The notes below the pieces were generated by a model that saw only the letters and a list, made by a program, of their open reading frames with translations, did not search any database and had not been told where the DNA came from. Shown piece after piece: positions 2,879 through 40,448 of a DNA stretch of 64,000 nucleotides. The position numbers and the translations under genes were made by a program. The stretch lies in assembly GCA_964549075.1 (NCBI GenBank), contig CAZJUB010000004.1, positions 1-64,000 on the forward strand, given 5' to 3'. Position 1 is the first letter of the stretch. Each line of letters starts with the position of its first letter. This stretch comes from an uncultured archaeon (GTDB lineage Archaea; Asgardarchaeota; Heimdallarchaeia; Heimdallarchaeales; Heimdallarchaeaceae).

Positions 2879-2973
2879 CTTAAAGCTTATTTTACGTTGG
2901 TTAATTATATATATTTGCAAACATATGATTCCATTTGGCAAAAATTCTTAAAGAACAGCTGTATTCCCTTTTC

Positions 2974-7743: not shown

Positions 7744-7930
7744 TTCAATCACTAATCTCACAAACTTTACATTGATATTTTAAATAGTTATCGGGGACAA
7801 GAGTAAAAGAAATAGAAGTGAAAAAAGATTCATTTTTTAACATTTTCAGTTTAGTTATAAAAAAATTTTTGAAAGTAAAACCAAAGCTGAGAATCCTTAT
7901 ATAATTTTAAAAATTATAAACAGAATTGTA

Positions 7931-9158: not shown

Positions 9159-10661
9159 TTAATCTATATTTTCGAGAATCAAATCGTTAACTTTCAGTTG
9201 AAGGTTAGTTTTTCTTCCGTCAAAAATCTCTTTTGCAAGTTTACTTATTTTAATTTCAACAGAATCATCAAATTTTGGAATTTTGATATTTGCCATTATT
9301 CGTTGAGTGAAAGAAATCCTGTGACCTCTTCTTGCTCCAGCTGAAAGATAATAATCTCGAAAGAAGTGACTATTAAGATAACCTAACAAAAAGAAAGGAT
9401 CTTTTTCTGTTGGAACTATTGTTAATACATCTCCTGAAGGATAAAATGGTTTTAATGACAAACTGAATCTATTAGTTGTACTTCTATCAAGATTTGGCAC
9501 AAAAATCTTTGCTGTATCTTTATAATCTTTTAGTGTTTCAAAATTCCTCAAAGCTTGCCAATGAAACCATTTCTTTTTATCTGGTAGATATCTAACACTC
9601 ATACTGGTTTTGAATTCGATTAATTTCTTGTGAATGAAAGGATATTTCTCTTTCAGTTCTTTTTCTGTCGAAATTCCTTCATCTAGCAAGATATATTCAG
9701 TGTAACCTTCGGTCCAGAAACCTTTACAGTGCTTAGCTTTGATACATTTAATCAACAGTTTTTTTTCCTCTTCATTTAGTAACTGTTTTTCTTCTTTTGT
9801 AATAGTAAATGCTTTTTCGAAACCTGAAACTAATCCTACACCTATCCAAGCTACATCTTTAAGAAAATAAAAATTATTAATTGCTTTTTCAGGATAGGTC
9901 GTCCACACTATGTTTTCGTTTGAAAACAGCTCTTTTGTGTGATAATCAAATGTTGATGAACTTGTTTGTAACTTCAAAACATTAGAAGCTTCTGATCGTA
10001 TTTTTTTAGGACTTAAATTGCGATCCTTTATTCTGAGTATCTTCACTTGAGAGTTAGTCTTCTGTTGAGTTTTGATAAACTTGAAAATGACTGTTTCTGG
10101 ATTTTCTCCTTCAAATAAGCGAGTCTCATCTAAATCGATAATTATCTTGATGAGACCTTTTGATTTTAATTTCTCTCTAACAACCTTTGCATAAGTGTTG
10201 AAAAAAAATCCATATGGAACAATATAGATAAGTTCTCCACCTATTTTCAGGAGATCTATAGATTTCATTATAAAGGCATAATAGATGTCTGATTCTTTAT
10301 TCCCAACTATTTCAGATACTTCAATTTTCATTTGTTTCGGTAATGAATTAAAGTGGCAATATGGAGGATTGCCAATTATCAAGTCGTACTTGGTGTTAGT
10401 TATCCAGCTCAAATAGTCAAAATTTTGAAAATCTAGATTTGGAAATTTAGTTTTAGAATACTGAAATAGCTCTTTATCAAGTTCTACTGCTGTTATATTT
10501 CTGTATCCAGCTTTTGTAAGTCTATCCACGAAAATTCCTTTTCCGGTACCTGAATCCACAATTGAAATATTCTTATCAGCTTTCTTATTTTCACTGATCA
10601 GTTCTATCATCAAATCTGCAATAGGTTCAGGCGTTTCTACAAAAGCAATAGGCTTATCCAT
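9159..10661 (-). CDS. N6-adenine DNA methyltransferase, gamma class (Eco57I/TaqI-like)
   Basis: ETPEPIA (motif X), DSGTGKGIF (motif I), IIGNPPY (motif IV), GGELIYIVP, C-terminal GYLNS target-recognition region. Confidence 0.9.
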   Translation of the reverse strand: MDKPIAFVETPEPIADLMIELISENKKADKNISIVDSGTGKGIFVDRLTKAGYRNITAVELDKELFQYSKTKFPNLDFQNFDYLSWITNTKYDLIIGNPPYCHFNSLPKQMKIEVSEIVGNKESDIYYAFIMKSIDLLKIGGELIYIVPYGFFFNTYAKVVREKLKSKGLIKIIIDLDETRLFEGENPETVIFKFIKTQQKTNSQVKILRIKDRNLSPKKIRSEASNVLKLQTSSSTFDYHTKELFSNENIVWTTYPEKAINNFYFLKDVAWIGVGLVSGFEKAFTITKEEKQLLNEEEKKLLIKCIKAKHCKGFWTEGYTEYILLDEGISTEKELKEKYPFIHKKLIEFKTSMSVRYLPDKKKWFHWQALRNFETLKDYKDTAKIFVPNLDRSTTNRFSLSLKPFYPSGDVLTIVPTEKDPFFLLGYLNSHFFRDYYLSAGARRGHRISFTQRIMANIKIPKFDDSVEIKISKLAKEIFDGRKTNLQLKVNDLILENID

Positions 10662-10721: not shown

Positions 10722-12755
10722 TTAGAGATTCACTTGTTCTAGAAGGTCATCTATTTTACCAGGAACAGCTGAAACAAATTTGGTTACCACAGGTGGAATT
10801 TCCTTAATTCTACTAGCTAAATTCATAGCCCACATTCTTATATCAGAGCTGACTTCAGAAGCAATAACTGCAATGATTCCGTTATTAATTGCTTGAAGAG
10901 AGATACAAAAATCTTCATAATTGACATCTTTCAATCGTCCTATTTCATCTCCTTCAAGAATACTTTCTGCAAATTGTGTAATAGCCATTAAAAGTCCAGA
11001 AAGAAGTAAATCATTTGTTTTTAGTTTATCTTTTAATTTAGAATAGATTGGAATCCCAGAGTCAGAGATAATTAATACTCCTAAAACTTCAACAGGTTTC
11101 TGTCTTGATTGTGTAAGTTTCAATGATAAAAGAGATTTAAATTGTGGAAGGATAAATTCTATAATGTTCTGGCTTTGTAGATCTAAAAGACCAGTATCTA
11201 CAGCTTTATTGATGCTCGTTTCGATTTTGTCTATATCACTCAAAAGATAATCAATATCAATATTTTTGCTAAGTTCTCTTGCTTTATCTAAATCTCGTAT
11301 AGAATCTTCATAATCACCAGTTAAAAGACAAAGAACCGAACAAATCATTAACGAGGTAGTTAAGATCTGGTTATGGTTATTTTCAATTGCCAACTGTCTA
11401 ACAGTATCAATATAAGACACTGCTAGATTGAGTGATTCTTTTTTCTCAAGTAATCTATAATACCAAAGATGAGCAACAGCAAGTTGAATATTACAGAAAA
11501 GAATAAGTTCCAAATCTTTTGTATGTTTTGCTTGTTTAAGCGAAGATTCAAGATATGCTAAAGCATTAGAGAGGTTATGATTTAGCATCTCATAAAAACC
11601 ACGTAGATAATCAACTCGTGCGTTTATAGAAGGTGCTTCTAGTTGTTTTGCTAGTTCTCTAAGTTCTTTCAAATATTTCTTAGAGGAATTTAAATCTTCA
11701 ATTCTGAGGTAATAATGAATTAATTCGTACATGATGAAAGCTTTGTGCATAGATTTTTCTTGTCGTTGAATCTTATATGCATGTAAGAACGATTCCTCAG
11801 CTCTTTTATCTCCAAGGAGATAATAGATATTCCCTATCTCAGTGAGATATAAATAAGGCCATTGACCGGTAGATTCTTTATAGAGATTTATTGCACGTTC
11901 CATTAATTCTTTAGATTTCTGTACCTGTCCTAATTCTAACAAAACCTCTGCTAGGTTACCTATAGCTATAGATAGCCTGTAATCGTCATTAAATTGTTCA
12001 TGAAGTTCAATCAACTTTTCAAAACTTTCCATTGCTTTAATATTGTCTCCAATAAAACTATCAATTGATCCTTTAACATTCAAATAACTAGTTTGTACTT
12101 GATAAAAGTTGTATTTTTTCACATATGGGTCAATAAAATCAATTAACTCTTCAAAATCAACTTCAATTCCTGAATGCAGATACCACCAAAGTGAGTTCAT
12201 GTAAGCTTCTTGTAAGCCACATTGTTCAACAAAATTGTCTGTTTCTTTGATACGATTTTTGACATAATTATGAATTTCTTTGATTTTTGCGATATCCCCT
12301 TGTTGACCATACATCCACGAACTTATTTCTGCGATATGAGCTTTCATTTCATCTGAATAATCGGTTTTGCTCTCTAGAACCTTAATTATTGATTTAAGTT
12401 TTTCAAATGATTCTTCATAATTTGTAGGATTCTCTTCAAAATAAATTATATAAGCTTCAATATAATCATGTTTTACTTTTTTAAGTAAATCAATAAAATA
12501 CTCGTCTGCTTTCATTTTTTGAGTTAGATAACAACACAAACTGGCTACATTTAATCTATCTTGAACACTGTATTTTTTAGGATTTTCAAGAACTTCCTCT
12601 AAGGCAAGTGTAGCTCCTTTTCTTATCTCTTCATTTAGATTTCTTTCTTCTTGATTTTCTATATACTCCTTTAGTTTTAAAGCTAAGGAAGAAGATAATT
12701 TAGCTACGAAATCGTCTAGAAAGTCTTGCATTATCAAATATTTTTTTCTGTTCAA
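10722..12755 (-). CDS. TPR-repeat protein with C-terminal longin/roadblock-like domain
   Basis: TPR-like repeats (GNLAEVLLELGQ, TEIGNIYYLLGD); C-terminal GVLIISDSGIPIYS...LLSGLLMAITQFA pattern. Confidence 0.75.
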   Translation of the reverse strand: MNRKKYLIMQDFLDDFVAKLSSSLALKLKEYIENQEERNLNEEIRKGATLALEEVLENPKKYSVQDRLNVASLCCYLTQKMKADEYFIDLLKKVKHDYIEAYIIYFEENPTNYEESFEKLKSIIKVLESKTDYSDEMKAHIAEISSWMYGQQGDIAKIKEIHNYVKNRIKETDNFVEQCGLQEAYMNSLWWYLHSGIEVDFEELIDFIDPYVKKYNFYQVQTSYLNVKGSIDSFIGDNIKAMESFEKLIELHEQFNDDYRLSIAIGNLAEVLLELGQVQKSKELMERAINLYKESTGQWPYLYLTEIGNIYYLLGDKRAEESFLHAYKIQRQEKSMHKAFIMYELIHYYLRIEDLNSSKKYLKELRELAKQLEAPSINARVDYLRGFYEMLNHNLSNALAYLESSLKQAKHTKDLELILFCNIQLAVAHLWYYRLLEKKESLNLAVSYIDTVRQLAIENNHNQILTTSLMICSVLCLLTGDYEDSIRDLDKARELSKNIDIDYLLSDIDKIETSINKAVDTGLLDLQSQNIIEFILPQFKSLLSLKLTQSRQKPVEVLGVLIISDSGIPIYSKLKDKLKTNDLLLSGLLMAITQFAESILEGDEIGRLKDVNYEDFCISLQAINNGIIAVIASEVSSDIRMWAMNLASRIKEIPPVVTKFVSAVPGKIDDLLEQVNL

Positions 12756-15068: not shown

Positions 15069-16781
15069 TCATGTGTAACGAAAAGTCTCTAAAACTAATC
15101 TTTCATAAACTTCATCATACATTGCCACAATTGTTTCTTTAGCAATATCCCTTGAGAATTTTCTAGCTATTCTCTCCTCAGGTTTTCGTTTCTTCCAGAT
15201 ATTAGCAATGAGCAGATATAATAATTTAGCGAAATAGAATAGACTTAATGGAAGAGCAAGTATAACTTTGAATAAAAACAGAAAGATTTTTGCAATCATA
15301 TTCAGAGATTGCTTTGCTTCTTGCTTAGTTTGTTTATCCAATTCTTCATGAGGTTCATCTGCTAAAAGTAAAGAGTTCAAACCTTTCTGAATTTCTACGA
15401 ATTTAGAACCTAAATAACTCCCAGCTCTTTTTGTCCAATTCTTAGCAAATATAATTTTAAAACTATTAATTATATGCTTTCCATAAGAGTAGAAAATCAT
15501 TCCAAACTCTATGAAAGGTACAACAAATCCGTAGGAGATATTTCGCAATTTTCTCAGAAATCTCTTAAAGAATTTTTCTTTTGCAAAATGATCAAGAATG
15601 TATCTATGTCCTCCCAAAGCTATGGAAAAAGCAAGTTGATTGTATTCAAGATCACTAATATGAGTCTTATATCTTTCTTCAACTTTAATAATTCCTTTTA
15701 ATGCACCATTCAATAGAATTGATTTAAAGAAATCGTCAGAAACAAATTCCTCACTTAGTTTGTTTGTTACAAAAACCAATGTTTGCTTAGCTTCTTTATA
15801 ACTCATAGAATTCTCTTTTGCAAATGCAGCTAGTCCAGGTTCTTTCTTCCAAGGGAAGATATAAGTCTCTTTTTGCCAGAGTAAAAGAGAAAAGACTCTA
15901 GAGAGAGAATCTTCTACCTTAGTCATATCAAGTCGGTCTTCTGTTTCTGAGGATAAAAATTCTTCATAAAGTTTCTTAGTCTTTTCAGGTAAAGAGAAAG
16001 AAGATATACTAATGATGTTAGTAAACCGTTTCTGAAGATTCCTCAAATCACCTACTAAATCGACTTTGAATTCTTCAAAGGTGGAAGCATCAACCGGAGG
16101 AGCTTCAAAGAACGAGAAACTAGCTTTTGAAGCCAGATAAGGCAAGGAAAAAAGATTTTCTATTCTCTGATAGAATGATCCCCAGCTATAAGCTCCCAAC
16201 CTTATCATCCTTAAACTTGCAGCATGAAATAATGCATAAACAGGTCCAAATACAGTTGCAATAAATGAGAGCATACCCATAATAGTGGAACAAATAACTG
16301 CAGTAGCAGTTATGAGTAGCCATTGGGTAGTGGTGTCAAGTTCACTAAAACTTGGGAAAAAAGTACCAATGATATTATTAACTAAACTATTAAAATCAGT
16401 TGTCTGACTGCCTATAAGAAGAATTGAAACAGAGATTATGACAATAATAATGAGAAGGTGGTCATAGGTTTCCCCTACTCCTCGCTGAATAGGATAAGCT
16501 TTGTTGATACGGTCTTCTCTCATCTGAATTTCTTCAATTTCCTCCTCTAGTTTGACTAGTTCTATTTTCTCTTGACTGGAAAAAAGATTAGAAGCATAAA
16601 CTAGATATCTTCTCCAAAGATTAAGGATAGGAACAAGCTCTCGTAATCCTCTAGGGATTATTAATTCATAAATATATAAAAGAAATTTAGCAAGAACTAC
16701 TGCGACATATAAAATAGCTCCAGCAATCCAGAGAAAGGGAGTAAGAATAGCAATCAGAATCTTACTAAATATTTTTTTCAT
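15069..16781 (-). CDS. Uncharacterised multi-pass membrane protein; paralog of 30302..32341 and 32352..34142
   Basis: Shared motifs GLRELVP, YPIQRGVGE, FGPVYALFH, SFSFFEAPP, GALKGI, MYDEVYERL. Confidence 0.8.
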   Translation of the reverse strand: MKKIFSKILIAILTPFLWIAGAILYVAVVLAKFLLYIYELIIPRGLRELVPILNLWRRYLVYASNLFSSQEKIELVKLEEEIEEIQMREDRINKAYPIQRGVGETYDHLLIIIVIISVSILLIGSQTTDFNSLVNNIIGTFFPSFSELDTTTQWLLITATAVICSTIMGMLSFIATVFGPVYALFHAASLRMIRLGAYSWGSFYQRIENLFSLPYLASKASFSFFEAPPVDASTFEEFKVDLVGDLRNLQKRFTNIISISSFSLPEKTKKLYEEFLSSETEDRLDMTKVEDSLSRVFSLLLWQKETYIFPWKKEPGLAAFAKENSMSYKEAKQTLVFVTNKLSEEFVSDDFFKSILLNGALKGIIKVEERYKTHISDLEYNQLAFSIALGGHRYILDHFAKEKFFKRFLRKLRNISYGFVVPFIEFGMIFYSYGKHIINSFKIIFAKNWTKRAGSYLGSKFVEIQKGLNSLLLADEPHEELDKQTKQEAKQSLNMIAKIFLFLFKVILALPLSLFYFAKLLYLLIANIWKKRKPEERIARKFSRDIAKETIVAMYDEVYERLVLETFRYT

Positions 16782-16848: not shown

Positions 16849-17856
16849 CTAATATTTTATTCTAGGATCGATAAACACATACGTGATATCCGTAAGTAAA
16901 CGCGCTACAAGGAATAAAAATGGGAAAATGGTGTTCGTAGCCATCATCATAGGAAAATCTCTAAAGAGCGCTCCTTGTAAGAAATACGTACCTAAACCAG
17001 GCCAGCCAAAAACGGTTTCTATCATGACACTACCCGATAGTAATCCTGGTAGAGAATTACCTACGATCGTGACTATGGGTAAAAGTCCATTTCTAAACGC
17101 ATGTTTGTATATTACTCCCCTCGATTTTACTCCTTTTGCCTTTGCCGTTGTTATATAATCTTGTCTCAGAATCTCTAAAAGTTGTGATCTAATCAAACGA
17201 GCCATGAAAACGAGATGTCCGAGGGTTAATGCTAGTGTTGGCAATATCAGATACTTGTAGAAATTCTTGTTTAAGAGTAGTGGTTTTACAAACGCATCCT
17301 TATTTGTTACTCCTGTAAAATTGAACAACTCAAAAGATAGATACATAAACAATTTTGCTATCCAGAACAGTGGCATTGAGTATCCTAGTAGCATTGCTAC
17401 TGTAAGAGTTCTATCCCAGAACGAATTTCTTCTTGTTGCTGACACTACACCTATTGCTGTAGACAAAACTAGTGATATAACGAATGATAGTATATTTAGA
17501 ATAAGTGTATATGGAGCGTGATCACCGATAATTTTCGCTATTGGTACCCCTTGTCCTGCTTGAGTATAATACCAACTTTCCCCGAAATCAAATCTTAACA
17601 AATGGCTAACATACAAAACATATCGTTGAAACCAAGGCACTGTATATAATTCTTGGTCTAACAGTCCCATTTCTATTGCTTCTTTGTTATACGCCTGATT
17701 ATAACAATCTGCTGATTCACAATGAATTAAACCTATTCTTACAACTACAGGATCTCCTGGTGCTACATTAATCAGAGTGAAATTCATCAACGTTATACCT
17801 AACATTACAGGTACAATGTATAATATTCTTCTTACAATAAACCCTTTTAATGACAA
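16849..17856 (-). CDS. Peptide/nickel ABC transporter permease (OppB/DppB type)
   Basis: APGDPV, DFGES, QDYITTAKAKG (EAA loop), HAFRN, ETVFGWPGLG, DPRI. Confidence 0.93.
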   Translation of the reverse strand: MSLKGFIVRRILYIVPVMLGITLMNFTLINVAPGDPVVVRIGLIHCESADCYNQAYNKEAIEMGLLDQELYTVPWFQRYVLYVSHLLRFDFGESWYYTQAGQGVPIAKIIGDHAPYTLILNILSFVISLVLSTAIGVVSATRRNSFWDRTLTVAMLLGYSMPLFWIAKLFMYLSFELFNFTGVTNKDAFVKPLLLNKNFYKYLILPTLALTLGHLVFMARLIRSQLLEILRQDYITTAKAKGVKSRGVIYKHAFRNGLLPIVTIVGNSLPGLLSGSVMIETVFGWPGLGTYFLQGALFRDFPMMMATNTIFPFLFLVARLLTDITYVFIDPRIKY

Positions 17857-26423: not shown

Positions 26424-27152
26424 TCAGTTGAGTTTCAATTTCTTTAACATTTTTTCTGCTGCTTCTTTTTTTGCAGCTTTTCGATTTTGTCCTTTCCCAA
26501 TAGTACTGATGGTTTTATCTTCAATTATGACTTTACATTCCATATGGAAAACTGGTTCATGATCACTTCCTCCTTTTTTGATCAAACTATATTCGGGAAG
26601 ATCAAGATCTTCTTTTTGAAAAAATTCTTGTAATATATTTATGGGATTTTTTTCGCAAATAGTGAGTTTCAGAATCTTTTCTCTTCCTTCTTCGTTTTTC
26701 AAATCTTCTTTAAACTGATGAAGATTTTTCTGAAAGATTCTTCTGAAAAACTCTCTAGCTACATCAAGTCCTTCAGAAAGATAGAAAGCGCCAAAAATTG
26801 CTTCTACTACATCCTCTAAATCTGTTTCTGCTACTTGATACTTTGATTCTGTTCTAAGATATTTTGCTATTTTCAAATCTTTTCCTACTTCTGCAAGAGC
26901 ATTTGTTCTTACTAATAATGATCGAAGTTGAGACATCAAACCCACTTCCTCATCAGTTTCTTTAAATAGCCATTCTGCTGATAATAAATCTAATACAGCA
27001 TCACCTAAAAATTCAAGTCTTTCAAAATCTTTAGCATCTGGATGTTCTGCTTTTAGATTTGGATGAGTAAATGCTTCTAGCAGTAGATCTTTATTTATTT
27101 TCCAGTCCAAAATTATTCCATTTTTAAAATCTATTTTATTGGTTTTAGACAT
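26424..27152 (-). CDS. rnc: Ribonuclease III with C-terminal dsRBD
   Basis: AFTHP, ERLEFLGDAVL, DVVEAIFGA; dsRBD NPINILQE...G.G..RKAAKKEAA. Confidence 0.93.
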   Translation of the reverse strand: MSKTNKIDFKNGIILDWKINKDLLLEAFTHPNLKAEHPDAKDFERLEFLGDAVLDLLSAEWLFKETDEEVGLMSQLRSLLVRTNALAEVGKDLKIAKYLRTESKYQVAETDLEDVVEAIFGAFYLSEGLDVAREFFRRIFQKNLHQFKEDLKNEEGREKILKLTICEKNPINILQEFFQKEDLDLPEYSLIKKGGSDHEPVFHMECKVIIEDKTISTIGKGQNRKAAKKEAAEKMLKKLKLN

Positions 27153-28317: not shown

Positions 28318-30276
28318 ATGAGTATTCTAGCTTACCTTGAGAAAATTCTACATAAAATCGACAAAGTGTTGTTGAACCAAGGTTATACGGAAGATGAATT
28401 ACATCAAGAAGGATTTCGAATTCTTGGAGAATTATATTTACTCAGTAGTTTGGAAAGAAATGGTTTGTTAAATGCAAATGATAGTTTTCAAAATAAGCAG
28501 AAAGAAGTCGTAAATTCTTTTCCAACGATCTTATCAGGAAAAATAGATACTTTATGCAGTAGTGCTTATGATGATTTACTTAAGCTTAGAGAAAATTATC
28601 AAAAAGATTCTCAACTAGATATTCTTGGATCTTTATATCAGAATGTTCTTACAAGATGGTATATCCAAGATCAAGGGATTGTTTTTACACCTGTACCAAT
28701 TGTAGAGTATATACTATCTCAAATAGACTTTCAATTAAATTCATTTCAAAAAGATGAGAATATAATTGATTTATCATGTGGTTCAGGAATTTTTCTTCGT
28801 AAAGCTGCAGAGAACGCAATTAAAAGTGCTATCTTTAAGAATGAAGAATATAATTTTATCCAAGAATACGTAAATAAAAACATTATAGGTTTTGATATTG
28901 ATCCTGATGCGATTTTTATTTCTCACATCAGTTTAACAGATCTTTTAATAGAAAAACTAAAACAAAATTACTCATTAGATATTAAATTTAATCCTAAAAT
29001 TTTCCAAACAAATTCTTTAGTTGAGAATGATAAAAATGATATCTTAGAAGTACAGAATCTCAAACATTCAAAGTTTAATTATGTAGTTGGTAATCCGCCT
29101 TATATAGAATCCAAAATTATGGATGAAGAAACTAAACAAATATGTATTCAGCATTTTCCTGAAGCAGCTAGGGGTCATTTTGATGTTTATTCATGTTTTC
29201 TATCTTTAGGAACAAGAGTATTAACGAAGGGTGGAAAATTAGGTTATATTATTCCAAATAAATTTCTCAGCTCTAACTATGCTAGAAAACTAAGAGAAAA
29301 ATATCTCTCTTCAAACTGTATTTCTCAGATAGTTGATTTATCACATAATGGTGTATTTCAACCTGCAGTATACCCTATAATTTTGATAATAGATAATCAA
29401 AATACTTTAAAAAATAGCATCAAAATTTCTCGAGCAAAAAGCCTTAACGACTTATCTCTTGATACTTTTTCTCATAACACAAAGATCGTAAAAACGAGTA
29501 ATTTTCTTAAAACTTATAATAAAACAATTTTCATCCTTGAAAATCCAATATTAGATATGGTAAACAGGATTTTCTCAGCGAGTTCTTTGACTTTAGGTGA
29601 GTTAGTTAGATTTCGGTGGGCAATTTCGTTTCATAGAAAAGGATTGCGGGAATTGTTTGTATCAAAAGTCCCTCGAGGACACTCTCCTGTTAAATTTCTT
29701 GGGGGTAAAGCTTTTGGAGGAAATAGAGAAATCAATCGTTATAACTTAAATTGGAAAGGTTATTGGATTGATTACGACCATAAAAAAGCAAAAAGTGTTA
29801 GGAATAATTTTCCTGATTATGAGTATTTTAAAAAAGAGAAAATTATAATTTGTCAGCATGCATTAAGAATAAGAGCAACAGTAGATTATGAAGGATATGC
29901 ATGTAAAGATATTTTTATTATTGGGCATCTTACAAAGAAATCAAGAGAATTAAGGATTAGTCTAGAATACATCCTAGCGTTACTAAATTCAGAACTATAT
30001 AGTCATCTCTATTCAAATATGTATTCTAGTACAGAAATTATGGGTAAATATCTTCACTACTTACCAATGTATCTACATGATCTTCCCGTAATAAAACCTA
30101 CAGAAAGCGACATTGTATATCTAGAAAGTTTGGTGAAAAAAAGATTACAACAAGCAAGTGATGAGTTCTCCTCAATTGATGAAGAAATTGATCAGAAAGT
30201 CTATGAAATTTACAATTGTAGCAAAGAAGAGATAGAACTAGCAAAAAAACATATAAAAGAATATCTAGTGAAATAA
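28318..30276 (+). CDS. N6-adenine DNA methyltransferase (Eco57I/TaqI-like, with TRD; no evident nuclease domain)
   Basis: GIVFTPVPIVEY, DLSCGSGIFL, GFDID, VVGNPPY, GGKLGYIIPNKF, ALLNS, EIDQKVYEIY. Confidence 0.92.
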   Translation: MSILAYLEKILHKIDKVLLNQGYTEDELHQEGFRILGELYLLSSLERNGLLNANDSFQNKQKEVVNSFPTILSGKIDTLCSSAYDDLLKLRENYQKDSQLDILGSLYQNVLTRWYIQDQGIVFTPVPIVEYILSQIDFQLNSFQKDENIIDLSCGSGIFLRKAAENAIKSAIFKNEEYNFIQEYVNKNIIGFDIDPDAIFISHISLTDLLIEKLKQNYSLDIKFNPKIFQTNSLVENDKNDILEVQNLKHSKFNYVVGNPPYIESKIMDEETKQICIQHFPEAARGHFDVYSCFLSLGTRVLTKGGKLGYIIPNKFLSSNYARKLREKYLSSNCISQIVDLSHNGVFQPAVYPIILIIDNQNTLKNSIKISRAKSLNDLSLDTFSHNTKIVKTSNFLKTYNKTIFILENPILDMVNRIFSASSLTLGELVRFRWAISFHRKGLRELFVSKVPRGHSPVKFLGGKAFGGNREINRYNLNWKGYWIDYDHKKAKSVRNNFPDYEYFKKEKIIICQHALRIRATVDYEGYACKDIFIIGHLTKKSRELRISLEYILALLNSELYSHLYSNMYSSTEIMGKYLHYLPMYLHDLPVIKPTESDIVYLESLVKKRLQQASDEFSSIDEEIDQKVYEIYNCSKEEIELAKKHIKEYLVK

Positions 30277-30301: not shown

Positions 30302-32341
30302 TTGGTTGAGTTTATGTCAAAAGAGAGTACCGATGAGGTGATAAGTTCTTTTCAGGAGTTCATAAATAATCACCCAAAGCTACAAAAATCCTATGAAATC
30401 ACCCGTTCTTTCCTTCATCGAAAAAGTACGGAAGGTAGCGAAGCTTTTAGAGAAAGTATGAGTAAAACTTGGTTTTTTACCCGAGAGAATATTATTCCTT
30501 ATTTTGCTCCTCTTGCTTTCATCTTTCTATTGTTTTATTTCATATTTTTATACCCATTTATCAAACTATTTACTTGGTTATATCGAATTCTTTTACCTCC
30601 TAAGTTTCGTAATAATTTAAAGAAAGTTTCATTTATCATTATTGCAGGTTTATTTACTTTTGTGTCAGTTGTAGGAAAGATACTTTTAGTTATTTATGAT
30701 ATCTTAGTTCCAACAGGATTACGAGAACTTGTACCTCTTCTTCAATTGTACAGAAAATATGTGTTAGTTATTTCAAATATCTTATCTGGAGAGAAATCTC
30801 AAGAGATTATGGAAGTATCAGAAGAGCTAGATGAATTGATGCTAAAAGAACAAAAAATGATAAAGAATTATCCTATTAGAAGAGGAGTAGGTGAGGTCAT
30901 CAATTTAGCTGTTACTCCTTTGGTATTTATAGCAATACCTACTCTTATTGTACGTATTTTTCGAATAGGTTATGCAACACTATTCTTTACTATAGATAAA
31001 CTTTCAACTCTTGGTCCTCTAGGTCCTCATAATTATCTAAGGTACTTTGATTTACTCAGATTGATTCAGGATTTAACAGGTTTAGGACCTATCTATTCTG
31101 TAGCTTTATTTGGTACTGGCTTACTTCTTGCAAGTTGGATCGCAACCATATTTGGACCAATTTATGCAGTATTTCACAGCTGTAGTGTTACCTTGATGAG
31201 GTTTGGATCATATCGTTGGGCTAATATTTACCAAAGTCTAGAAAATTTCTTTTCTCTTCCTTATTATGCTGCAAAATCATCTTTCAGTTTCTTTGATGCT
31301 CCTCCGATATCAATCGAAACGTACAAGGATTTTAAATTGGTAATTGAGGATGAAGTAGATACGATAAAAGAGAAAGTTCAATCACTTATTGTTTTAGATA
31401 GTGTTAAAGTCCCTGAACGTTCCAAAGAGATGTTAGAAGATCTTTTAGGGAAAGCTGAATTGACTTTAAATGAGCTTGATATTTCACGAATAGAACAAGA
31501 AACAGCTCGAACATTTGCACTTCTTATTTGGAGTAAAGAAGCATCAATTTTTCCTTGGATATCAAATGAAGCTAAAAGCACATTCGCTAAACAAAATGAT
31601 ATGTCTGTTGAAGAAGTAGGAAAAGCTTTTAGTTTGATTCTAAAGAAAATTGATGAAGGGTATCTCACAGATGATCTTTTTTCGTCTGTTTTAATAACCG
31701 GAGCTTTGAAAGGTATTAACGATCAACAAAAGAAATACAAACAGCTATTAGATGATATCGAATATAACAAACTAGCTATTTCCTTAGCTCTAGGAGCAAG
31801 ACAATATCTAAAGGATCAATTTGCAAAAAAACCTTGGTATAAGAAAATTGGAAAGAAGATTTTAATTTCATTAATTGCTCCTTTTATGCCTTTAGCTGTT
31901 ATAATTCTAGCATTTTATAACTATTTCAAACACATAATTTTGTCAACATTAAAAGCAATCATTGCTTTAGGAACAACCCGTGTAGGTCGTTTTATTTCTA
32001 GAAGATTTCTAGAAATTCGTGATACCATCATAACTACTTTTGACACAGTATCTTCGATGGGAAAAGAATTTAGCTTCAAAGAAGATTTGAATATAGATTT
32101 TAACAAGGCTCTCAAAATAACTGGAAAGATAATATTTAGACTAATCTTTTTTGTACCAGTACTTCTTTATTCTCTTTACAAAACAATAAGAAGATTATTT
32201 TACAGGATCTTTAAAAGGAGAAGTGAGGAGGAAGGGATGAGAAGAAGGTTTGAAAGAGAATTAGCAAAAGCATCTCTTGTGGCAATGTATCAAGAGATTT
32301 ATGATAAAATGTTAATCTCAGACTTATTAATTACAGATTAA
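30302..32341 (+). CDS. Uncharacterised multi-pass membrane protein (paralog family member 2)
   Basis: GLRELVP, YPIRRGVGE, FGPIYAVFH, SFSFFDAPP, GALKGI, MYQEIYDKM; several TM segments. Confidence 0.8.
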   Translation: MVEFMSKESTDEVISSFQEFINNHPKLQKSYEITRSFLHRKSTEGSEAFRESMSKTWFFTRENIIPYFAPLAFIFLLFYFIFLYPFIKLFTWLYRILLPPKFRNNLKKVSFIIIAGLFTFVSVVGKILLVIYDILVPTGLRELVPLLQLYRKYVLVISNILSGEKSQEIMEVSEELDELMLKEQKMIKNYPIRRGVGEVINLAVTPLVFIAIPTLIVRIFRIGYATLFFTIDKLSTLGPLGPHNYLRYFDLLRLIQDLTGLGPIYSVALFGTGLLLASWIATIFGPIYAVFHSCSVTLMRFGSYRWANIYQSLENFFSLPYYAAKSSFSFFDAPPISIETYKDFKLVIEDEVDTIKEKVQSLIVLDSVKVPERSKEMLEDLLGKAELTLNELDISRIEQETARTFALLIWSKEASIFPWISNEAKSTFAKQNDMSVEEVGKAFSLILKKIDEGYLTDDLFSSVLITGALKGINDQQKKYKQLLDDIEYNKLAISLALGARQYLKDQFAKKPWYKKIGKKILISLIAPFMPLAVIILAFYNYFKHIILSTLKAIIALGTTRVGRFISRRFLEIRDTIITTFDTVSSMGKEFSFKEDLNIDFNKALKITGKIIFRLIFFVPVLLYSLYKTIRRLFYRIFKRRSEEEGMRRRFERELAKASLVAMYQEIYDKMLISDLLITD

Positions 32342-32351
32342 ATAGTGATAC

Positions 32352-34142
32352 TTGCGGAACATTAAAATTCTTTTAAGAAAATGTTTTTCAATGTCTTCTA
32401 GTGCTAATGTCAATCAAGCAGATGAAGAAATAACTGAAAAAGAAGAAGAGATAAACAAAGAAGTATCTGAGGGAACTGGAGAAGAGGAGGAAAAATTTCA
32501 AAGTAAAAAGAAAGGCAAATTTACCTTTACAATTCTTTCTGTAATAATATCAATTGTTTCTATTAGCACAAAATTCATGATAATTATTTATGATATTTTC
32601 ATCCCAAAAGCACTTCGTGAATATGTTCCTTTTCTAAATATGGTTCGTAAAATTGCTTTACCCATTTCAGAGATACTTGCAGGAAAGAAATCAAAAGAAA
32701 TAACTGAGGTAACAAATGAACTTGATGAATTGGATATTCAAAAAGAGAAGGTAATGAAAGCTTATCCTCTTCGAAGAACTATTGGGCAAGCGATAAGTAT
32801 GGGTGTTTCTCCTCTTATTCTAATTGTAATTCCAACTATTATTTGGGGTGACACTTTGATCGACAAAATCCAACTAGCTCTTAATATACCAGAAGATTAT
32901 CAATGGGTAATTTTTCTGCTATTGGGAACTATTATGTTGATTTTATCATGGATTGTAACCGTTTTCGGACCGTTTTATGTTATTTTTCATAATTCGAGTA
33001 AATATATGCTAAAATTAGGAGCTTACAGGTGGGCAGCCATATTTCAAGATTTAGAAAATCTATTTGCTATCCCTTATTTTACTGCTAAATCTTCGTTTAG
33101 TTTTTTTGATGCACCTCCAATCTCAAGTGAGACTCTAGAGGAATTTAAACTAGACATTAAAGACGAAGTAGAAACAGTTAAAGAGAAAGTGGAAGGATTG
33201 CTTGCACTCGACACGAAGAATGTTCCTGATCGATCAAAAGAACAGCTTGAGAAACTCCTCAAGAAAATAGAGATCCCATTGGAAAAATTAGATTTATCCA
33301 AAGTTAAAGATAGTACTGCTAGAACATTTGCATTATTAATCTGGTCTAAAGAATCATCTATTCTTCCCTGGAGAAGACAAGATGCGTTAGAGAAATTTGC
33401 TGAAAGAAATAATCTAACTAATCAAGAAGTCAAGGAAGCTTTCATTCTCTTAAACAAAAAGAGAAAGGAAGAAGGTATATCTGAGGAAACTGTCAAGTCA
33501 ATTCTTGTTACAGGAGCACTAAAAGGAATTGAGAAACAAGAAGAGAAATATGAACAAATAATGACAGATATTGAAGCTAACAAACTAGCCATTTCTTTAG
33601 CATTAGGTACAGAACAATATTTAGAAGACCTTTACTCAACACTTCCATTATTCTTAAAGATTCTAAAGGAAATTAGTTTTTCAATTTTAGCCTTTTTAAT
33701 GCCATTTCTGCTTATAATTATAGCAATTTTACTTTACATCAAACATGTCATCTTTACTCTGTTCAAGACATTATTTTCAAAAGATACCTTAAGGATTCAT
33801 AGATATATTAAGAAAAGATATAAAGAAATCAAAAACACACTAGAAGAAACTTATCAATCTGTAAAAGAAAAAGGTAAGAAATTCAATTTCAAAGAAGATG
33901 TCGATATCGATTTCAAAGGCTTTTTCAAGAAAATTGGAAAAGGTTTCTTGAAACTTATTCTCGCTCTTATTAAATTAGCAATTCTATGGCCTTTATGGAA
34001 ATCACTCTATATTCGTATAGCTAAACTTGTTGCAAATCGAAAACCAGAAGCAAAGATGAGAAAGATGTTTGAGAAAGAGCTCACAACAGAATCGTTGATT
34101 TTCATGTATCAAGAAGTATATGATAGATTAATTATTCAATAG
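32352..34142 (+). CDS. Uncharacterised multi-pass membrane protein (paralog family member 3)
   Basis: ALREYVP, YPLRRTIGQ, FGPFYVIFH, SFSFFDAPP, GALKGI, MYQEVYDRL; likely start ATG 32391. Confidence 0.8.
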   Translation: MRNIKILLRKCFSMSSSANVNQADEEITEKEEEINKEVSEGTGEEEEKFQSKKKGKFTFTILSVIISIVSISTKFMIIIYDIFIPKALREYVPFLNMVRKIALPISEILAGKKSKEITEVTNELDELDIQKEKVMKAYPLRRTIGQAISMGVSPLILIVIPTIIWGDTLIDKIQLALNIPEDYQWVIFLLLGTIMLILSWIVTVFGPFYVIFHNSSKYMLKLGAYRWAAIFQDLENLFAIPYFTAKSSFSFFDAPPISSETLEEFKLDIKDEVETVKEKVEGLLALDTKNVPDRSKEQLEKLLKKIEIPLEKLDLSKVKDSTARTFALLIWSKESSILPWRRQDALEKFAERNNLTNQEVKEAFILLNKKRKEEGISEETVKSILVTGALKGIEKQEEKYEQIMTDIEANKLAISLALGTEQYLEDLYSTLPLFLKILKEISFSILAFLMPFLLIIIAILLYIKHVIFTLFKTLFSKDTLRIHRYIKKRYKEIKNTLEETYQSVKEKGKKFNFKEDVDIDFKGFFKKIGKGFLKLILALIKLAILWPLWKSLYIRIAKLVANRKPEAKMRKMFEKELTTESLIFMYQEVYDRLIIQ

Positions 34143-36089: not shown

Positions 36090-39000
36090 ATGAAATTAAA
36101 TTTTTCAACTGCTATTATCATCAGTATTGTATTTACATCCTTTCTTCTTAATCCACAATTGATCTCATTAATAAATAAATCTAATAATCAATCAACAGAA
36201 TCAAGTCCAGAAACGCAAACAAATAATATTCCTAATTATGATGACGATGTTTCTACCATTAAAAAAATTGAAACACCAGGTCATTATGCATTAAAAGCAT
36301 TTTTTTCACAAAATAACATCATAAATATAGGTCCTGAAGGCGATGCTTTAGAATGGGTTAGCTATGATGACATACGATATTCAGGATGGTCAAGTAGTTA
36401 TTCAACCATGGATTTCAGAATTGATAGTAGTTACACATATAATCCTGATTGTTGGCCAAATCAAGTTGATACATATACCTACATGAGAGATAATGGATAT
36501 CCCTATCCTGTTTCAGTAATGTATAGCCCTGTTTTTGAAGAAGAAACATATATTCAAGGTAAAGTTCATTTTTTGACATATCTTCGAACAAATTTCGATT
36601 ATGCTTATTCATTAACTATAACTTTTCGAATTAGACTCATGCTTTTCAATACTACAGATTCAACATCATCAGAGATTATATCGATAGAAGATGATTTAGG
36701 TTATGATGATTACACACAAGCAATTACTTATGATTACACCTTAGGTTCGCCAGTAACAATACCAGCTGGATTTCGGCTTAAAGTAGCTTATGATGCAAAA
36801 TTATCTACTCTAAGTTATTCTGGAAATATGTTTCTATATGCAGGAGACAGAGGATATAACACTTTACATTGGAATATTTATGATGGAGATTATTCTGCGT
36901 ATTATTCAATATCAAGTACTGATGAGATTTTAGGAGTTCAATTCGATATGTATGATACCATTTATCCTAATATCATAACTTCAGGATTTAGTAATAACAC
37001 TATTTATCAAGAAAATAAAACAATTTCAATTGATGTATCAGGAGCAGAAGATAGTTCCTATACTTGGGATTATGGAACACCTGTTAGTTTTGGTACTTAT
37101 ACAACCACAGATTTACCTTTTACCATGGGCTGGCACACTTTAGCAGTACAAGCTCTAGATGAGTATGAGAACAACAAGACAATGATTTATGAAATAGGTT
37201 ATGATGGTTCAATAATTAATATTGCTCTTCAGAGTCCAAGTAACAATTCAGTTGTTGGTAAAGGAGAAATTCTTGATTTTGAGATATTTAGTATAGATTA
37301 TGCAACGTATGAATGGGATAATAGTGGAACGCAAAATAATTTAACATCACCAGAATATGACATTATTGCGCCAGCATTTGATGGAATTCACAATTTAACA
37401 ATTACAACACATGATGTTTTTGAAACTAAATCTTTCTATTATGAATTTAATTTTGATGGTATAGCACCAGCTATAAATCTCGTAGATGCTAGTGTGTCTA
37501 ACAATTCTATACAACCAGCTGGGAAACTCATTGACATCAATGTAACAGATCCTGTAGGAGTAGCTGAAGTGTATTATAAATGGGATTCAAGAGATAATTT
37601 TACTTGGTATGCTTTTGATGGATCTATCTATAGAACATATTTACCAGAATCGGCTGGAGTTCATACCCTTTATGTCTCAGCTAAAGATAATTATGACAAT
37701 GCAATTAGTTTAGTTTTCCGTTTTACAGCTCAATTAAATCAAATATTAGTGGAATTAAGAAATGTTAATGACAACTCATACTTTCAAGGTAACAATGTTA
37801 TAGAAGTAACTATGCTTGGAATTAATAATACGATAAAATATAAATGGGACTCAGGAAGCGAATTAGATGGTTTATTAGATGCGTTTTATGTTAATTCAAC
37901 GTTGATTCTAAATGGAACTAATGTTCTTCCTTATTCACCCTTAGGAGAACATTATTTGACTATTAGAACCTTTGATACATCTGATATGCAGCATATTTAT
38001 ATTTTTAAATTTACTTTGGATAGAGAAGCTCCTGTAATTCTCACAGACAAACTGGAATATGATGGGAAAAGATTTCTTGATACTGATACTTTACAATTTT
38101 CTTTTAGTGACAATTTTGCTTCAGTGTCTCAGTTAGATGTAATCCTTTCTGTTGATGGAATTACAAACCATTCTCTTATATACCCTTACAATTTTAATCT
38201 TCTCTCACTATCTGATGGAACATATAATTTAACTATATATGTTTATGATATTGCAGATAATTTCGCGATAAGATCCTATCTAATAACTATAGATAATACT
38301 GCTCCTGAGATAGAAATCATTAATATGGAAGATATAGTTTATCTGCAAGGTCAGTATTATATTCCAGGTGATTTTAATGTATCTGTCTTAATAACAGATG
38401 ATGATAGTCAGATTAACAGTACATATTCATGGGGAGGAACAGAATATAATGATTTCAGTAATTCTTTCATCTTAAGTTTTATAGATGGAACTTCAGTCTT
38501 GTATATAAATGCAAGTGATTCTTTAGGAAATCATGAAGAAATTTCTATAACATTAACAATAGATAGTACAGCTCCTATATCCACCTTAGTCTTTCCTTTT
38601 ATTAATTCTAAAATCAATAGTAATACAACTTTAGATTTTGTTATTGAAGATATATCAAGAGCTACAATTGAAACTATATATTATACGTGGGATTATATTC
38701 CAGCAGCTATATTTTTTCCATTAACATTTAATAGTCTAGGCGAAGCAACATTCGATGGATATCCAGAATCTTTCTATCCAGCAAATGGCACAACAGCTGT
38801 TTTGTCAGTTTATGTAGAAGATATAGTTGGGAATAACCATACATATACATATAGTTTTGTTGTTGATAATGAAGGACCAAATTATAATCTGCAACTATAC
38901 AACGAGGATACTGAACAATGGGAAATTCTAAAAATTACAGAGACTTATCTTATAACTAATGATTCATTGATTAGAATAGTTGCAGAAAATACTGAAGATA

Positions 39001-40448
39001 CTTTTAATTATTTCTGGAATAATGAAACAGATAGACCAATAAACAAATCGACTTGGTTAATTTCCGATGTTCCAGATTATGGTTTAGTCAATTTAACAAT
39101 TGTTGCTAATGATGACTCTGGAGAAAGATTATTTCCAAATGAAAAAATTATTACATTTCACTTTACTAATAAAAAAGAAGGTGCTCTTATAATTCTAAAC
39201 TCCAATGATCAAGTAATATATGGAGATAATCTTAGAGTTCGAGTAGTTTTACAAGATGACCTATCAAATAATCAATCTATTATCAAAATTTCTGTGAACG
39301 GAACTTCTTTATCTTTCTCTTTAGAAACTGCAAGTATTTATTATTTTGACTATACTATACGAAAGTCTAAGGGTAATTATAACTTACAAATAATAGCTGA
39401 ATCAGATCTTTATTTTGGTAAAACAAATAATTCCTTAATCTATAATTTTGTCGTTCTTCCGCTTCCTCTCAATTTAACTATTGCTTCTTCAAGCTTAGAA
39501 GTAATAGCTGGTTCAGCAGTAGAATTAACAGGAACATTGACTTTCCTAAATGGAACCCCAGTTGAAGATATGGATTTAATTTTCAATTTTTACATTTATT
39601 ATAAGGATAATAGTTTTTTCACTATTACAGCAGCATTTACTGATTATGATAATATTACAACTCGTACTGGGCAAACAAATTCTTATGGTATTGCAACAGT
39701 AACTTTTACCCCAACAGAAGATTTGGACCATATTTCAGTAGATGTTTCCTTTGAAGGAAGTGATATATTAGGTAATATCTCTTTAGATTTTTCACAGTCA
39801 ATTGTGGTTATTAAAGCAGGTTTACAATCTTGGCTTTTATATACAATTATAGGTGGAAGTTTAGTTATTATAGCTATAGTATCTCTAATAATATACAGAG
39901 CAACTAGATCAACTCCTTTTGAAGATCTTCTAAGTAAAGTTACAGAAGAGGATGTGATGATAAAACTCCAAGAATTTTGTCCGGGTGTGATTCTTACTAT
40001 TTTTGATCAAAGGCAAGGTGCTATACCTATTCTAACTGATCATTCATTCGGATTTGACCATAGTGGAAGAATTGCTTTAGAGTCAGATAATTTCATACTG
40101 AAAGTATCTGACCAAGCCTTTTCAGCTCTGGGATTTGAAGAAACACTTCAAGGAAGAAGATTGGGTTCGTTAACACTTCCAAATGAATCTATGCTAGGTT
40201 TTCTCCAAGGTATTCAAATACAGAATAAAGAAGCTAGAGGAGGACTTGAAAATCTTGTTCTCGTAGTTTTAACTGATTTAGAATATGGTACAACATTATT
40301 AACCTACCAAGAGTATTTACATCCATTAATAGATGATTTACAAGCAATGCTTCAAGAGAAAAAACCTTTGAAGGAAATTGAAAGTCAGATGAGAGTAATT
40401 AGACTTCAAGCTGTAAAAGTAATTTTAGCTGGATACGAATTAGAATGA
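36090..40448 (+). CDS. Large single-pass surface protein: signal peptide, Ig-like beta repeats, TM helix, cytoplasmic longin/uDENN-like domain
   Basis: Repeated Y.WD / G.H.L / D..GN / D..AP units with many N-x-S/T sequons; TM WLLYTIIGGSLVIIAIVSLIIY; tail GVILTIFDQRQGAIP. Confidence 0.8.
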   Translation: MKLNFSTAIIISIVFTSFLLNPQLISLINKSNNQSTESSPETQTNNIPNYDDDVSTIKKIETPGHYALKAFFSQNNIINIGPEGDALEWVSYDDIRYSGWSSSYSTMDFRIDSSYTYNPDCWPNQVDTYTYMRDNGYPYPVSVMYSPVFEEETYIQGKVHFLTYLRTNFDYAYSLTITFRIRLMLFNTTDSTSSEIISIEDDLGYDDYTQAITYDYTLGSPVTIPAGFRLKVAYDAKLSTLSYSGNMFLYAGDRGYNTLHWNIYDGDYSAYYSISSTDEILGVQFDMYDTIYPNIITSGFSNNTIYQENKTISIDVSGAEDSSYTWDYGTPVSFGTYTTTDLPFTMGWHTLAVQALDEYENNKTMIYEIGYDGSIINIALQSPSNNSVVGKGEILDFEIFSIDYATYEWDNSGTQNNLTSPEYDIIAPAFDGIHNLTITTHDVFETKSFYYEFNFDGIAPAINLVDASVSNNSIQPAGKLIDINVTDPVGVAEVYYKWDSRDNFTWYAFDGSIYRTYLPESAGVHTLYVSAKDNYDNAISLVFRFTAQLNQILVELRNVNDNSYFQGNNVIEVTMLGINNTIKYKWDSGSELDGLLDAFYVNSTLILNGTNVLPYSPLGEHYLTIRTFDTSDMQHIYIFKFTLDREAPVILTDKLEYDGKRFLDTDTLQFSFSDNFASVSQLDVILSVDGITNHSLIYPYNFNLLSLSDGTYNLTIYVYDIADNFAIRSYLITIDNTAPEIEIINMEDIVYLQGQYYIPGDFNVSVLITDDDSQINSTYSWGGTEYNDFSNSFILSFIDGTSVLYINASDSLGNHEEISITLTIDSTAPISTLVFPFINSKINSNTTLDFVIEDISRATIETIYYTWDYIPAAIFFPLTFNSLGEATFDGYPESFYPANGTTAVLSVYVEDIVGNNHTYTYSFVVDNEGPNYNLQLYNEDTEQWEILKITETYLITNDSLIRIVAENTEDTFNYFWNNETDRPINKSTWLISDVPDYGLVNLTIVANDDSGERLFPNEKIITFHFTNKKEGALIILNSNDQVIYGDNLRVRVVLQDDLSNNQSIIKISVNGTSLSFSLETASIYYFDYTIRKSKGNYNLQIIAESDLYFGKTNNSLIYNFVVLPLPLNLTIASSSLEVIAGSAVELTGTLTFLNGTPVEDMDLIFNFYIYYKDNSFFTITAAFTDYDNITTRTGQTNSYGIATVTFTPTEDLDHISVDVSFEGSDILGNISLDFSQSIVVIKAGLQSWLLYTIIGGSLVIIAIVSLIIYRATRSTPFEDLLSKVTEEDVMIKLQEFCPGVILTIFDQRQGAIPILTDHSFGFDHSGRIALESDNFILKVSDQAFSALGFEETLQGRRLGSLTLPNESMLGFLQGIQIQNKEARGGLENLVLVVLTDLEYGTTLLTYQEYLHPLIDDLQAMLQEKKPLKEIESQMRVIRLQAVKVILAGYELE

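Follow-up and report, generated by a model that had tools for sequence, protein, structure and literature searches.

A membrane protein family of one Heimdallarchaeia order with an unusual predicted topology and a possible scaffolding or membrane-shaping role

Among prokaryotes, the Heimdallarchaeia rank with the closest kin of eukaryotes, and the way in which they shape their membranes is an open question. Here we analyse a family of membrane proteins encoded in a 64,000-nucleotide stretch of DNA from an uncultured member of the Heimdallarchaeaceae (the window: positions 1 to 64,000 of contig CAZJUB010000004.1, assembly GCA_964549075.1, forward strand). The family is a real and undescribed one, specific to a single order of Asgard archaea, and its predicted topology is unusual, with one transmembrane hairpin and several further hydrophobic helices that would sit in the inner leaflet. 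We tentatively favour the view, drawn largely by analogy, that it is a housekeeping scaffold or shaping protein on the cytoplasmic face of the membrane. A 580-residue protein found in nearly all genomes of an order, with a predicted topology largely confined to one leaflet, is a good target for structural genomics and reconstitution, and might bring to light an archaeal way of shaping membranes or scrambling lipids.

An earlier note on this DNA, made from the sequence alone, had placed three paralogs within positions 30302-34142. Two of them, A and B, do lie there, while the third, C, lies outside, 13.5 kb from A and on the opposite strand (Table 1). A and B are arranged in tandem in the same orientation, with a gap of 49 nucleotides between their likely coding regions, and their likely starts agree with the lengths of database clusters (P0001, 675 residues; P0002, 583 residues). 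Residues of the family are numbered here by paralog B, counted from the ATG at 32391. Over 549-576 aligned residues, A and B are 44-45% identical, A and C 35%, and B and C 32% (E values 1e-103 to 1e-169); no fourth copy was found in the 3.2-Mb assembly, where the next match after A, B and C has an E value of 0.61. Paralog A carries an additional N-terminal helix, H0, and a long hairpin loop. All of the motifs listed in the earlier note are present in the three-way alignment, namely P..LRE.VP, YP..R..G, FGP.Y..FH, EN.F..PY...K.SFSFF(D/E)APP, F.LL.W.KE..I.PW, GALKGI, E.N.LA.S.ALG and the terminal MY.E.Y(D/E). The GC content of the genes equals the average of the window and genome, and a scan for promoters and terminators, by a method ill-suited to archaea, stayed at chance level.

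Across 400 genomes of the phylum, with three candidates scored per genome, a 107-row profile matched the family in 45 of the 47 genomes of the order to which the window belongs. By taxonomic family (f1 to f4), it was present in 29/30, 1/1, 11/12 and 3/3 genomes, as well as in G000. The two genomes without a match are 76% and 82% complete, and a 1.4-Mb assembly (G040) retains the family. The other 353 Asgard genomes yielded a single weak match of 21 bits, interrupted by two stops. In 36 genomes from the remaining orders of the class, where up to 16 candidates were scored, the family was not found either; the only match was the weak, stop-interrupted one in that same genome (G260). A word-indexed search returned 79 relatives, every named one a ‘hypothetical protein’; their labels are mostly Heimdallarchaeota or Heimdallarchaeaceae, with one ‘Asgard group’ and one Thorarchaeota, and the Thorarchaeota-labelled locus, L036, shows the synteny of paralog C and may be mislabelled. 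When 1.84 billion representatives were searched with HMMER without an index, 29 proteins were returned, of which 24 had E <= 1e-30 and the others were short fragments; neither a tail of remote relatives nor a eukaryotic link was found in this library, which carries no names. None of 24 pattern matches on viral contigs was confirmed as a family member, and a divergent alignment confirmed 1 of 141 metagenome contigs, which added no new context.

Selection on the family is purifying. The ratio of non-synonymous to synonymous substitution rates (dN/dS) was 0.03-0.20 in 11/11 orthologous pairs, with dS near saturation in six, and the hairpin loop evolves faster in the B and C pairs, yet not above dS. 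The family is thus an old, vertically inherited core gene rather than mobile cargo, and it is on the basis of its presence in 45/47 genomes, its low dN/dS and its genome-average GC that we describe the pattern as housekeeping.

The earlier note had made a hetero-oligomeric complex the defining trait of the family, and here the evidence goes the other way. The tree, built by a quick search from 74 of the 107 rows, rooted at the midpoint and supported by the Shimodaira-Hasegawa-like approximate likelihood ratio test only, implies one ancestral gene, with a duplication into AB and C at the base of family f1, an A/B duplication inside genus g1, and a separate tandem duplication in G030. Two deep-branching members, P0089 and P0091, group with none of the four sampled families in the tree. 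That they join may reflect long-branch attraction, and a search with the divergent alignment A6 returned P0091 only. We counted 18 distinct loci that start with a methyltransferase gene and are closed downstream, leaving out those open at a contig end. In the 15 that are intact from this gene to that of an EamA transporter, A and B occur together in 8, A alone in 5 and B alone in 2; the remaining three have one pre-duplication copy and different flanks. Of the 16 genomes from f2-f4 (63-94% complete), 12 have one match, two have two copies, one has two non-overlapping fragments and one has none. Since A-only and B-only loci and single-copy genomes exist, a fixed heteromer is unlikely to define the family, and because one gene suffices, any assembly would be homomeric by default. 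An obligate hetero-oligomer of A, B (and C) would account for the co-oriented tandem, for the eight loci that keep both genes, for the independent duplication in G030, and for the two copies in both single-contig genomes (G065, G109), but given the single-gene loci, the single-match genomes and the single ancestral gene, we regard it as very improbable. The paralogs may mix optionally in f1. We also considered and rejected a ClyA-type tripartite toxin. These alpha-pore-forming toxins likewise comprise three all-helical paralogs with a hydrophobic hairpin, but three co-required components are contradicted by the copy numbers, and C lies at a distance on the other strand. Unlike the toxins, the family is integral to the membrane, vertically inherited and encoded by one gene in many genomes, and Foldseek rows against SmhB and AhlB were at noise level (E 3.7-3.8, template modelling score 0.08).

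As the earlier note had proposed, this is an undescribed family. No meaningful match was found in Pfam (best E 0.0011 over 44 members, with no Pfam family matched by more than three of them), NCBIfam (best E 0.0095, 16.5 bits against a cut-off of 75), PHROGs (best E 0.0091, six proteins), PADLOC (none of five members) or, by sequence, the PDB (best E 0.84 for the whole profile). One 53-column sub-profile reached TilS (1wy5, E 0.0034; E 0.063 for the stretch, 35 residues), which we set aside as a short helix match. The ESM Atlas held no usable match to B or to its domain. With the full-length model of B (583 residues), Foldseek against the PDB returned 236 rows, none at E <= 0.001 (best E 0.35); among 48,161 chains compared by VIA-align, a single row, a 66-residue hairpin, reached Z >= 8; and viral structures gave 0/85 rows (best E 0.17). 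With a model of the domain B236-420, Foldseek gave 0/488 rows and VIA-align no chain at Z >= 5, the best being 4.7 over 38 residues. These fold searches used models with a predicted template modelling score (pTM) of about 0.6, and so neither prove a new fold nor exclude any family. A ribbon-helix-helix domain at B320-361 was also rejected: windows over B300-369 gave hhalign probabilities of at most 0.26% against a narrow comparison set (two orthologous groups from related genomes), and none appeared among the Pfam and PDB sequence matches of a 44-row sub-alignment; structural rows of this kind covered about 40 residues at Z <= 4.7. A confident full-length match to a characterised family was sought in both profile and structure searches and not found. 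Nor did we find a nucleotide-binding motif or a transporter or channel profile match, in keeping with the absence of Walker, catalytic and known transporter motifs noted previously. The novelty is that of the family; its mechanism may prove to be of a known kind.

No paper on the family was found in the literature searched, which included few subscription journals. Three proteins from Ca. Heimdallarchaeaceae/Heimdallarchaeota (HeimAB125_12720, K9W46_02950 and K9W45_02555) belong to the same family, with 44-57% identity to A over 84-95% of the length; they are unannotated, without a listed Pfam domain, and their locus tags were absent from that literature. The family could stand unnamed in the supplements of PMC13734099, PMC9804665, PMC7997004 and 10.1101/2024.07.04.601786; the last counts 83 Heimdallarchaeaceae-specific and 127 Kariarchaeaceae-specific orthogroups.

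The AlphaFold2 model of B is all-helical (pTM 0.62; mean predicted local distance difference test, pLDDT, 68), with good confidence around residues 190-225, 330-390, 400-460 and 561-583 and low confidence over 99-153. Five hydrophobic segments, H1, TM2, TM3, H4 and H5 (TM, transmembrane), have median longest uncharged runs of 17, 20, 34, 23 and 13 residues, respectively. H1 reaches an uncharged run of at least 18 residues in 40% of 102 rows, contains a proline in 33% of rows, and is flanked on both sides by a mean of 3.4 K/R; the corresponding values are 68% of 106 rows, 85%, and 4.7 and 2.7 K/R for H4, and 2% of 105 rows, 71%, and 4.7 and 5.6 K/R for H5. H1, H4 and H5 vary in sequence (mean entropy 2.2-2.7) yet keep their hydrophobicity, a pattern expected of lipid-facing helices. 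The additional helix of A is probably a tandem duplicate of H1, as an hhalign comparison of H0 (11 rows) with H1 (102 rows) gave a probability of 59% (pairwise E 9e-5, 28 columns), against 0.1-16% for the other 14 segment pairs. The loop between TM2 and TM3 is the sole segment without basic flanks (0.4-0.5 K/R), its net charge is zero or below in 93% of 107 rows, and the hairpin region B150-175 ranges from 14 to 57 residues across 107 homologues. The loop is thus variable, as the earlier note had seen, and it probably faces outward.

Conserved residues are mostly prolines, glycines, aromatics and paired charges; G193, P194, Y212, P228, P242, P243, R311, F313, F336, G406 and D413 are invariant, and P72 and P80 reach 100% weighted conservation. 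The most conserved element, 212-243, also holds E222 (97%), F236 (97%) and D240 (93%). In the C-terminal helix, F560, Y573 and E575 are conserved at 90-94%, and pLDDT is 81-91 at 561-583. Across the order some motifs are looser, with H200 at 65%, K233 at 56% and SFSFF becoming AGF(L/M)LL, and in the order-wide alignment no position is an invariant His, Cys or Ser and a nucleotide-binding motif is absent. In the model of B, residues 177-242 superpose on straight two-helix hairpins (Z <= 8.4, root-mean-square deviation 2.8, 66 residues aligned), which suggests that helix 212-239 runs back along TM3 toward the membrane.

Which of these segments cross the membrane was approached with a log-odds composition score, trained on half of a set of 103 signal-to-TM ectodomains and 603 soluble proteins of the same genome and checked on the other half. 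The soluble segments 73-128, 201-418, 456-512 and 546-583 score -0.11 to -0.22 and are cytoplasm-like (held-out controls: cytoplasmic -0.089, ectodomain +0.064), and they carry 0.05-0.57 N-glycosylation sequons per 100 residues as opposed to 1.67. For region 201-418 in particular, the score is -0.113 (cytoplasmic controls -0.083, ectodomain controls +0.072), with 0.33 sequons per 100 residues as opposed to 1.79 in ectodomain windows. Natural N-terminal extensions before H1 offer a further indication. Seven proteins carry four hydrophobic segments there, with alternating acidic and basic linkers, and two proteins carry two; these even numbers imply that H1 starts inside. Extensions of four or two segments are carried by L051, L052, L053, L056, L057 and L060 in f3 and by L059 in f2, and they have no Pfam match in the members scanned. 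The lone additional segment found in 14 A-type proteins is strongly basic on either flank.

From these sequence-based indications, we favour as the simplest reading one true TM hairpin (TM2-TM3), with H0, H1, H4 and H5 lying in the inner leaflet, so that all conserved soluble parts (about 315 residues) would be cytoplasmic and only the hairpin loop outside. The inner-leaflet case is strong for H5, fair for H0 and H1, and weakest for H4. Of the N-terminal TM region described in the earlier note, the hydrophobic H1 is upheld, while a full crossing appears less likely than an inner-leaflet or re-entrant helix, given its basic flanks and the extensions. Alternatively, the protein could be a conventional five-pass one, in which H1, TM2, TM3, H4 and H5 all cross and the conserved domain lies outside, as in a receptor or surface assembly factor. 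Such strict alternation is geometrically self-consistent, as the conserved segments then share one side and the N-terminus and the basic 456-512 linker lie inside, and the median uncharged run of H4 would suffice. However, segments that are rich in K/R and poor in sequons (0.33 and 0.05 per 100 residues) would then be outside and the one acidic loop inside, H5 almost never attains the length of a crossing, and in A the single extra segment would require a linker bearing 5-10 basic residues to be translocated. We consider this arrangement improbable.

How might such a protein act? In the reading that we tentatively favour, H1, H4 and H5 (and H0 in A) would start and end in the cytoplasm and sit in the inner leaflet as proline-kinked wedges with basic flanks. 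Hydrophobic helices with both ends in the cytoplasm, the trait of wedge-type proteins, are what flank charge, composition, sequons and extension parity point to. By expanding the inner leaflet, in analogy with reticulon- and caveolin-type proteins and with no homology claimed, the wedges could shape the membrane; self-association of the helical core, which we infer by analogy as well, would turn leaflet expansion into a patch of curved or ordered membrane. As later duplicates, the three paralogs may tune assembly or mix optionally. Of the roles that the earlier note had suggested (channel, membrane shaping or scaffolding), the latter two fit the predicted topology, and the channel is kept as a rival.

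Several points weigh against a wedge-type scaffold. In 68% of rows H4 has the length needed for a crossing, and so does H1 in 40%. The evidence on topology is statistical; the composition score tells helical from beta-rich folds as well, so that fold class may account for part of it, and the TM2-TM3 loop itself scores in between (0.005) and has few sequons (0.43 per 100 residues). The model is of moderate confidence, with pLDDT below 50 at B99-153, TM2 included. The function is drawn from analogy only, and no neighbour conserved across the order indicates a pathway. The position of the most conserved element, 212-243, beside TM3 and with D240, suggests chemistry or a pore over a passive wedge. 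According to PMC9804665, no internal membranes were observed in the first Asgard archaeon brought into culture.

The conservation of this element also speaks for a conduit, whether a channel, a lipid scramblase or an insertase-like protein, a reading that we keep mainly because helix 212-239 runs back along TM3 in the model. Helix 212-239 would re-enter the membrane beside TM3 and end in F...D.PP; together with the polar G(Q/E)..(D/N) start of TM2 and a G/T/S face of TM3, it would form a hydrophilic groove, or a pore in a ring, and the basic helices would thin or anchor the bilayer. Conservation peaks exactly here (Y212, E222, P228, F236, D240, P242, P243), the model pairs residues 177-242 as a hairpin, TM3 carries small or polar residues (G/S179, T/S180, S/A186, T/G190), and so does the start of TM2 (Q/E133, D/N/S136). 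An uncharged run of 17 residues surrounds P228 in 17/107 rows; in the other 90, charge interrupts the 222-240 segment and the run is 9-11. Each chain has only two clear crossings, no meaningful transporter or channel match was found in Pfam or NCBIfam for 44 members and the three window proteins, and genes for a solute-binding or ATPase partner show no order-wide link to the family. A conduit is a possibility that we rate as rather unlikely.

The protein could also be an anchor or adaptor at the membrane, or the membrane-bound part of some larger, lineage-specific machine with a partner encoded elsewhere. The large conserved cytoplasmic helical body, which has conserved charges of a surface type (R311, E321, K357, D393, R476, E479, E575), would then bind the partner, and the hydrophobic helices would merely tether it. 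Near-universal presence in the order would suit such a role; a mere tether has no need for another three to four interfacial helices, of which one is a duplicate, the families share no conserved neighbour, and no longer fused form was found among 7999 long candidates scored, which is weak evidence. We hold this to be unlikely. Doubtful as well, though with somewhat more in its favour, is a new-fold remodelling protein that is the order's own invention, independent of eukaryotes: a self-assembling coat on the cytoplasmic face with wedge helices and a re-entrant D.PP loop that passes lipids or solutes. Here, three to four kinked wedge helices per subunit would bend or thin the archaeal ether-lipid membrane, and curvature would be tuned by wedge duplication (H0 in A) and optional mixing of paralogs.

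Pfam contains models for reticulon/REEP, caveolin and ATG9, and none of these is among the 21 Pfam families matched at E <= 0.1 by the 44 members. ATG9 and caveolin-type proteins have proline-kinked re-entrant or monotopic helices; the family would likewise combine kinked half-membrane helices with true crossings and a cytoplasmic helical body, but its membrane segments differ in order and number. Reticulons and REEPs, which shape the endoplasmic reticulum, offer short hydrophobic hairpin wedges as a parallel in working only; they have two short hairpins, whereas the family has one full hairpin plus single kinked helices and, at about 580 residues, a large conserved helical body, with no sequence match. 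PMC9804665 states that reticulons and REEPs bend membranes via hairpin wedges and that oligomerisation is required. The hairpin of PspA/ESCRT-III proteins (4whe_A, 8wb7_A, 9fn1_U) superposes on residues 177-242 at Z 8.4, 7.8 and 6.7 (root-mean-square deviation 2.8-3.6, 66 residues), but the overlap is 11% of the chain, one arm is a transmembrane helix here, and there is no Pfam match; in that superfamily, chains of roughly 200 residues combine a soluble alpha1-alpha2 hairpin with additional helices. As the PspA score is within one Z unit of rubrerythrin, Snf7, designed bundles and other generic hairpins, the superposition implies no kinship with PspA or ESCRT-III.

Table 1. Positions of the family genes, of their segments and of other genes in the window
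Feature	Positions	Strand	Remarks
Paralog A	30302-32341	+	679 residues from TTG; likely start ATG at 30314, 675 residues
Paralog B	32352-34142	+	596 residues from TTG; likely start ATG at 32391, 583 residues
Paralog C	15069-16781	-	570 residues
H0 of A	30485-30625	+	additional hydrophobic segment with proline, ending L..P(P)K(F/L)R
H1, then P..LRE.VP (B47-86)	32529-32648	+	putative inner-leaflet or re-entrant helix
Hairpin TM2-loop-TM3, ending FGP (B133-200)	32787-32990	+	loop predicted outside
Helix YR...EN.F..P...F...D.PP (B212-243)	33024-33119	+	most conserved element; candidate re-entrant element
Soluble helical domain (B244-418): F.LL.W, PW, GALKGI, LA.SLALG	33120-33644	+	cytoplasm-like; domain model pTM 0.61
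H4 (B419-452)	33645-33746	+	hydrophobic, central proline, basic on both sides
H5 (B513-545)	33927-34025	+	amphipathic, basic; uncharged span too short for a normal crossing
C-terminal helix F..EL....L..MY.E.Y (B552-583)	34044-34139	+	conserved
Eco57I/TaqI-type N6-adenine methyltransferase, NPPY motif	28318-30276	+	near one family locus
Eco57I/TaqI-type N6-adenine methyltransferase, NPPY motif	9159-10661	-	near one family locus
DppB-like ABC permease	16849-17856	-	adjoins C in most f1 loci; other ABC subunits not nearby
First ~300-residue paralog	808-1722	+	
Second ~300-residue paralog	60621-61607	+	
RING-finger membrane protein	1838-2941	-	
DNA ligase	5872-7761	-	
TPR protein	10722-12755	-	
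RNase III	26424-27152	-	
Surface protein	36090-40448	+	

The genes around the family differ between taxonomic families, and a conserved partner gene was rejected on this ground. In f1, A and B follow an Eco57I-type methyltransferase gene and usually precede that of an EamA transporter, and C lies beside a DppB-like permease gene of the ATP-binding cassette (ABC) type; in nine f3 loci, the family gene has a DsbD/CcdA transmembrane gene beside it or close by; in f4, the neighbours encode an epimerase and a SIS protein. With no partner common to the whole order, the gene context points to no function and lends no weight to a defence system. A membrane effector working with the upstream N6-adenine methyltransferase would be suggested by the 37 nucleotides between that gene and the likely start of A, by a second methyltransferase gene four genes downstream of C, and by the synteny maintained in f1. 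However, a methyltransferase gene adjoins the family gene in 0/15 fetched f2-f4 loci, PADLOC matched none of five members, and near-universal vertical presence and purifying selection, with no non-synonymous excess in the loop, are at odds with such a role. Already unlikely from synteny, a defence function is one to which we give hardly any credence.

Both methyltransferase genes are syntenic across f1, and no restriction nuclease gene is evident beside either. The DppB-like permease has a second copy, 82% identical, on contig C40. Two paralogs of about 300 residues near opposite ends of the window are 31% identical, lack a Pfam match and carry C..C and H.C motifs near the N-terminus; two further copies lie on contigs C32 and C88. 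The window also encodes a bacterial-type RNase III with a double-stranded RNA-binding domain, in an archaeal genome, as a single copy that is syntenic across f1. A 1452-residue surface protein has immunoglobulin-like repeats, one TM segment and a cytoplasmic tail of about 180 residues, and a 677-residue protein has tetratricopeptide repeats (TPR); by eye, the ends of both resemble a domain of the longin/roadblock type. From its K.DG motif, zinc finger and BRCT-like end, another gene presumably encodes a DNA ligase of the bacterial, nicotinamide adenine dinucleotide-dependent type. Finally, one membrane protein combines two hydrophobic segments at its N-terminus with a zinc ribbon and a RING finger (zf-RING_2 at the cut-off) at its C-terminus, and is a candidate membrane-anchored ubiquitin ligase.

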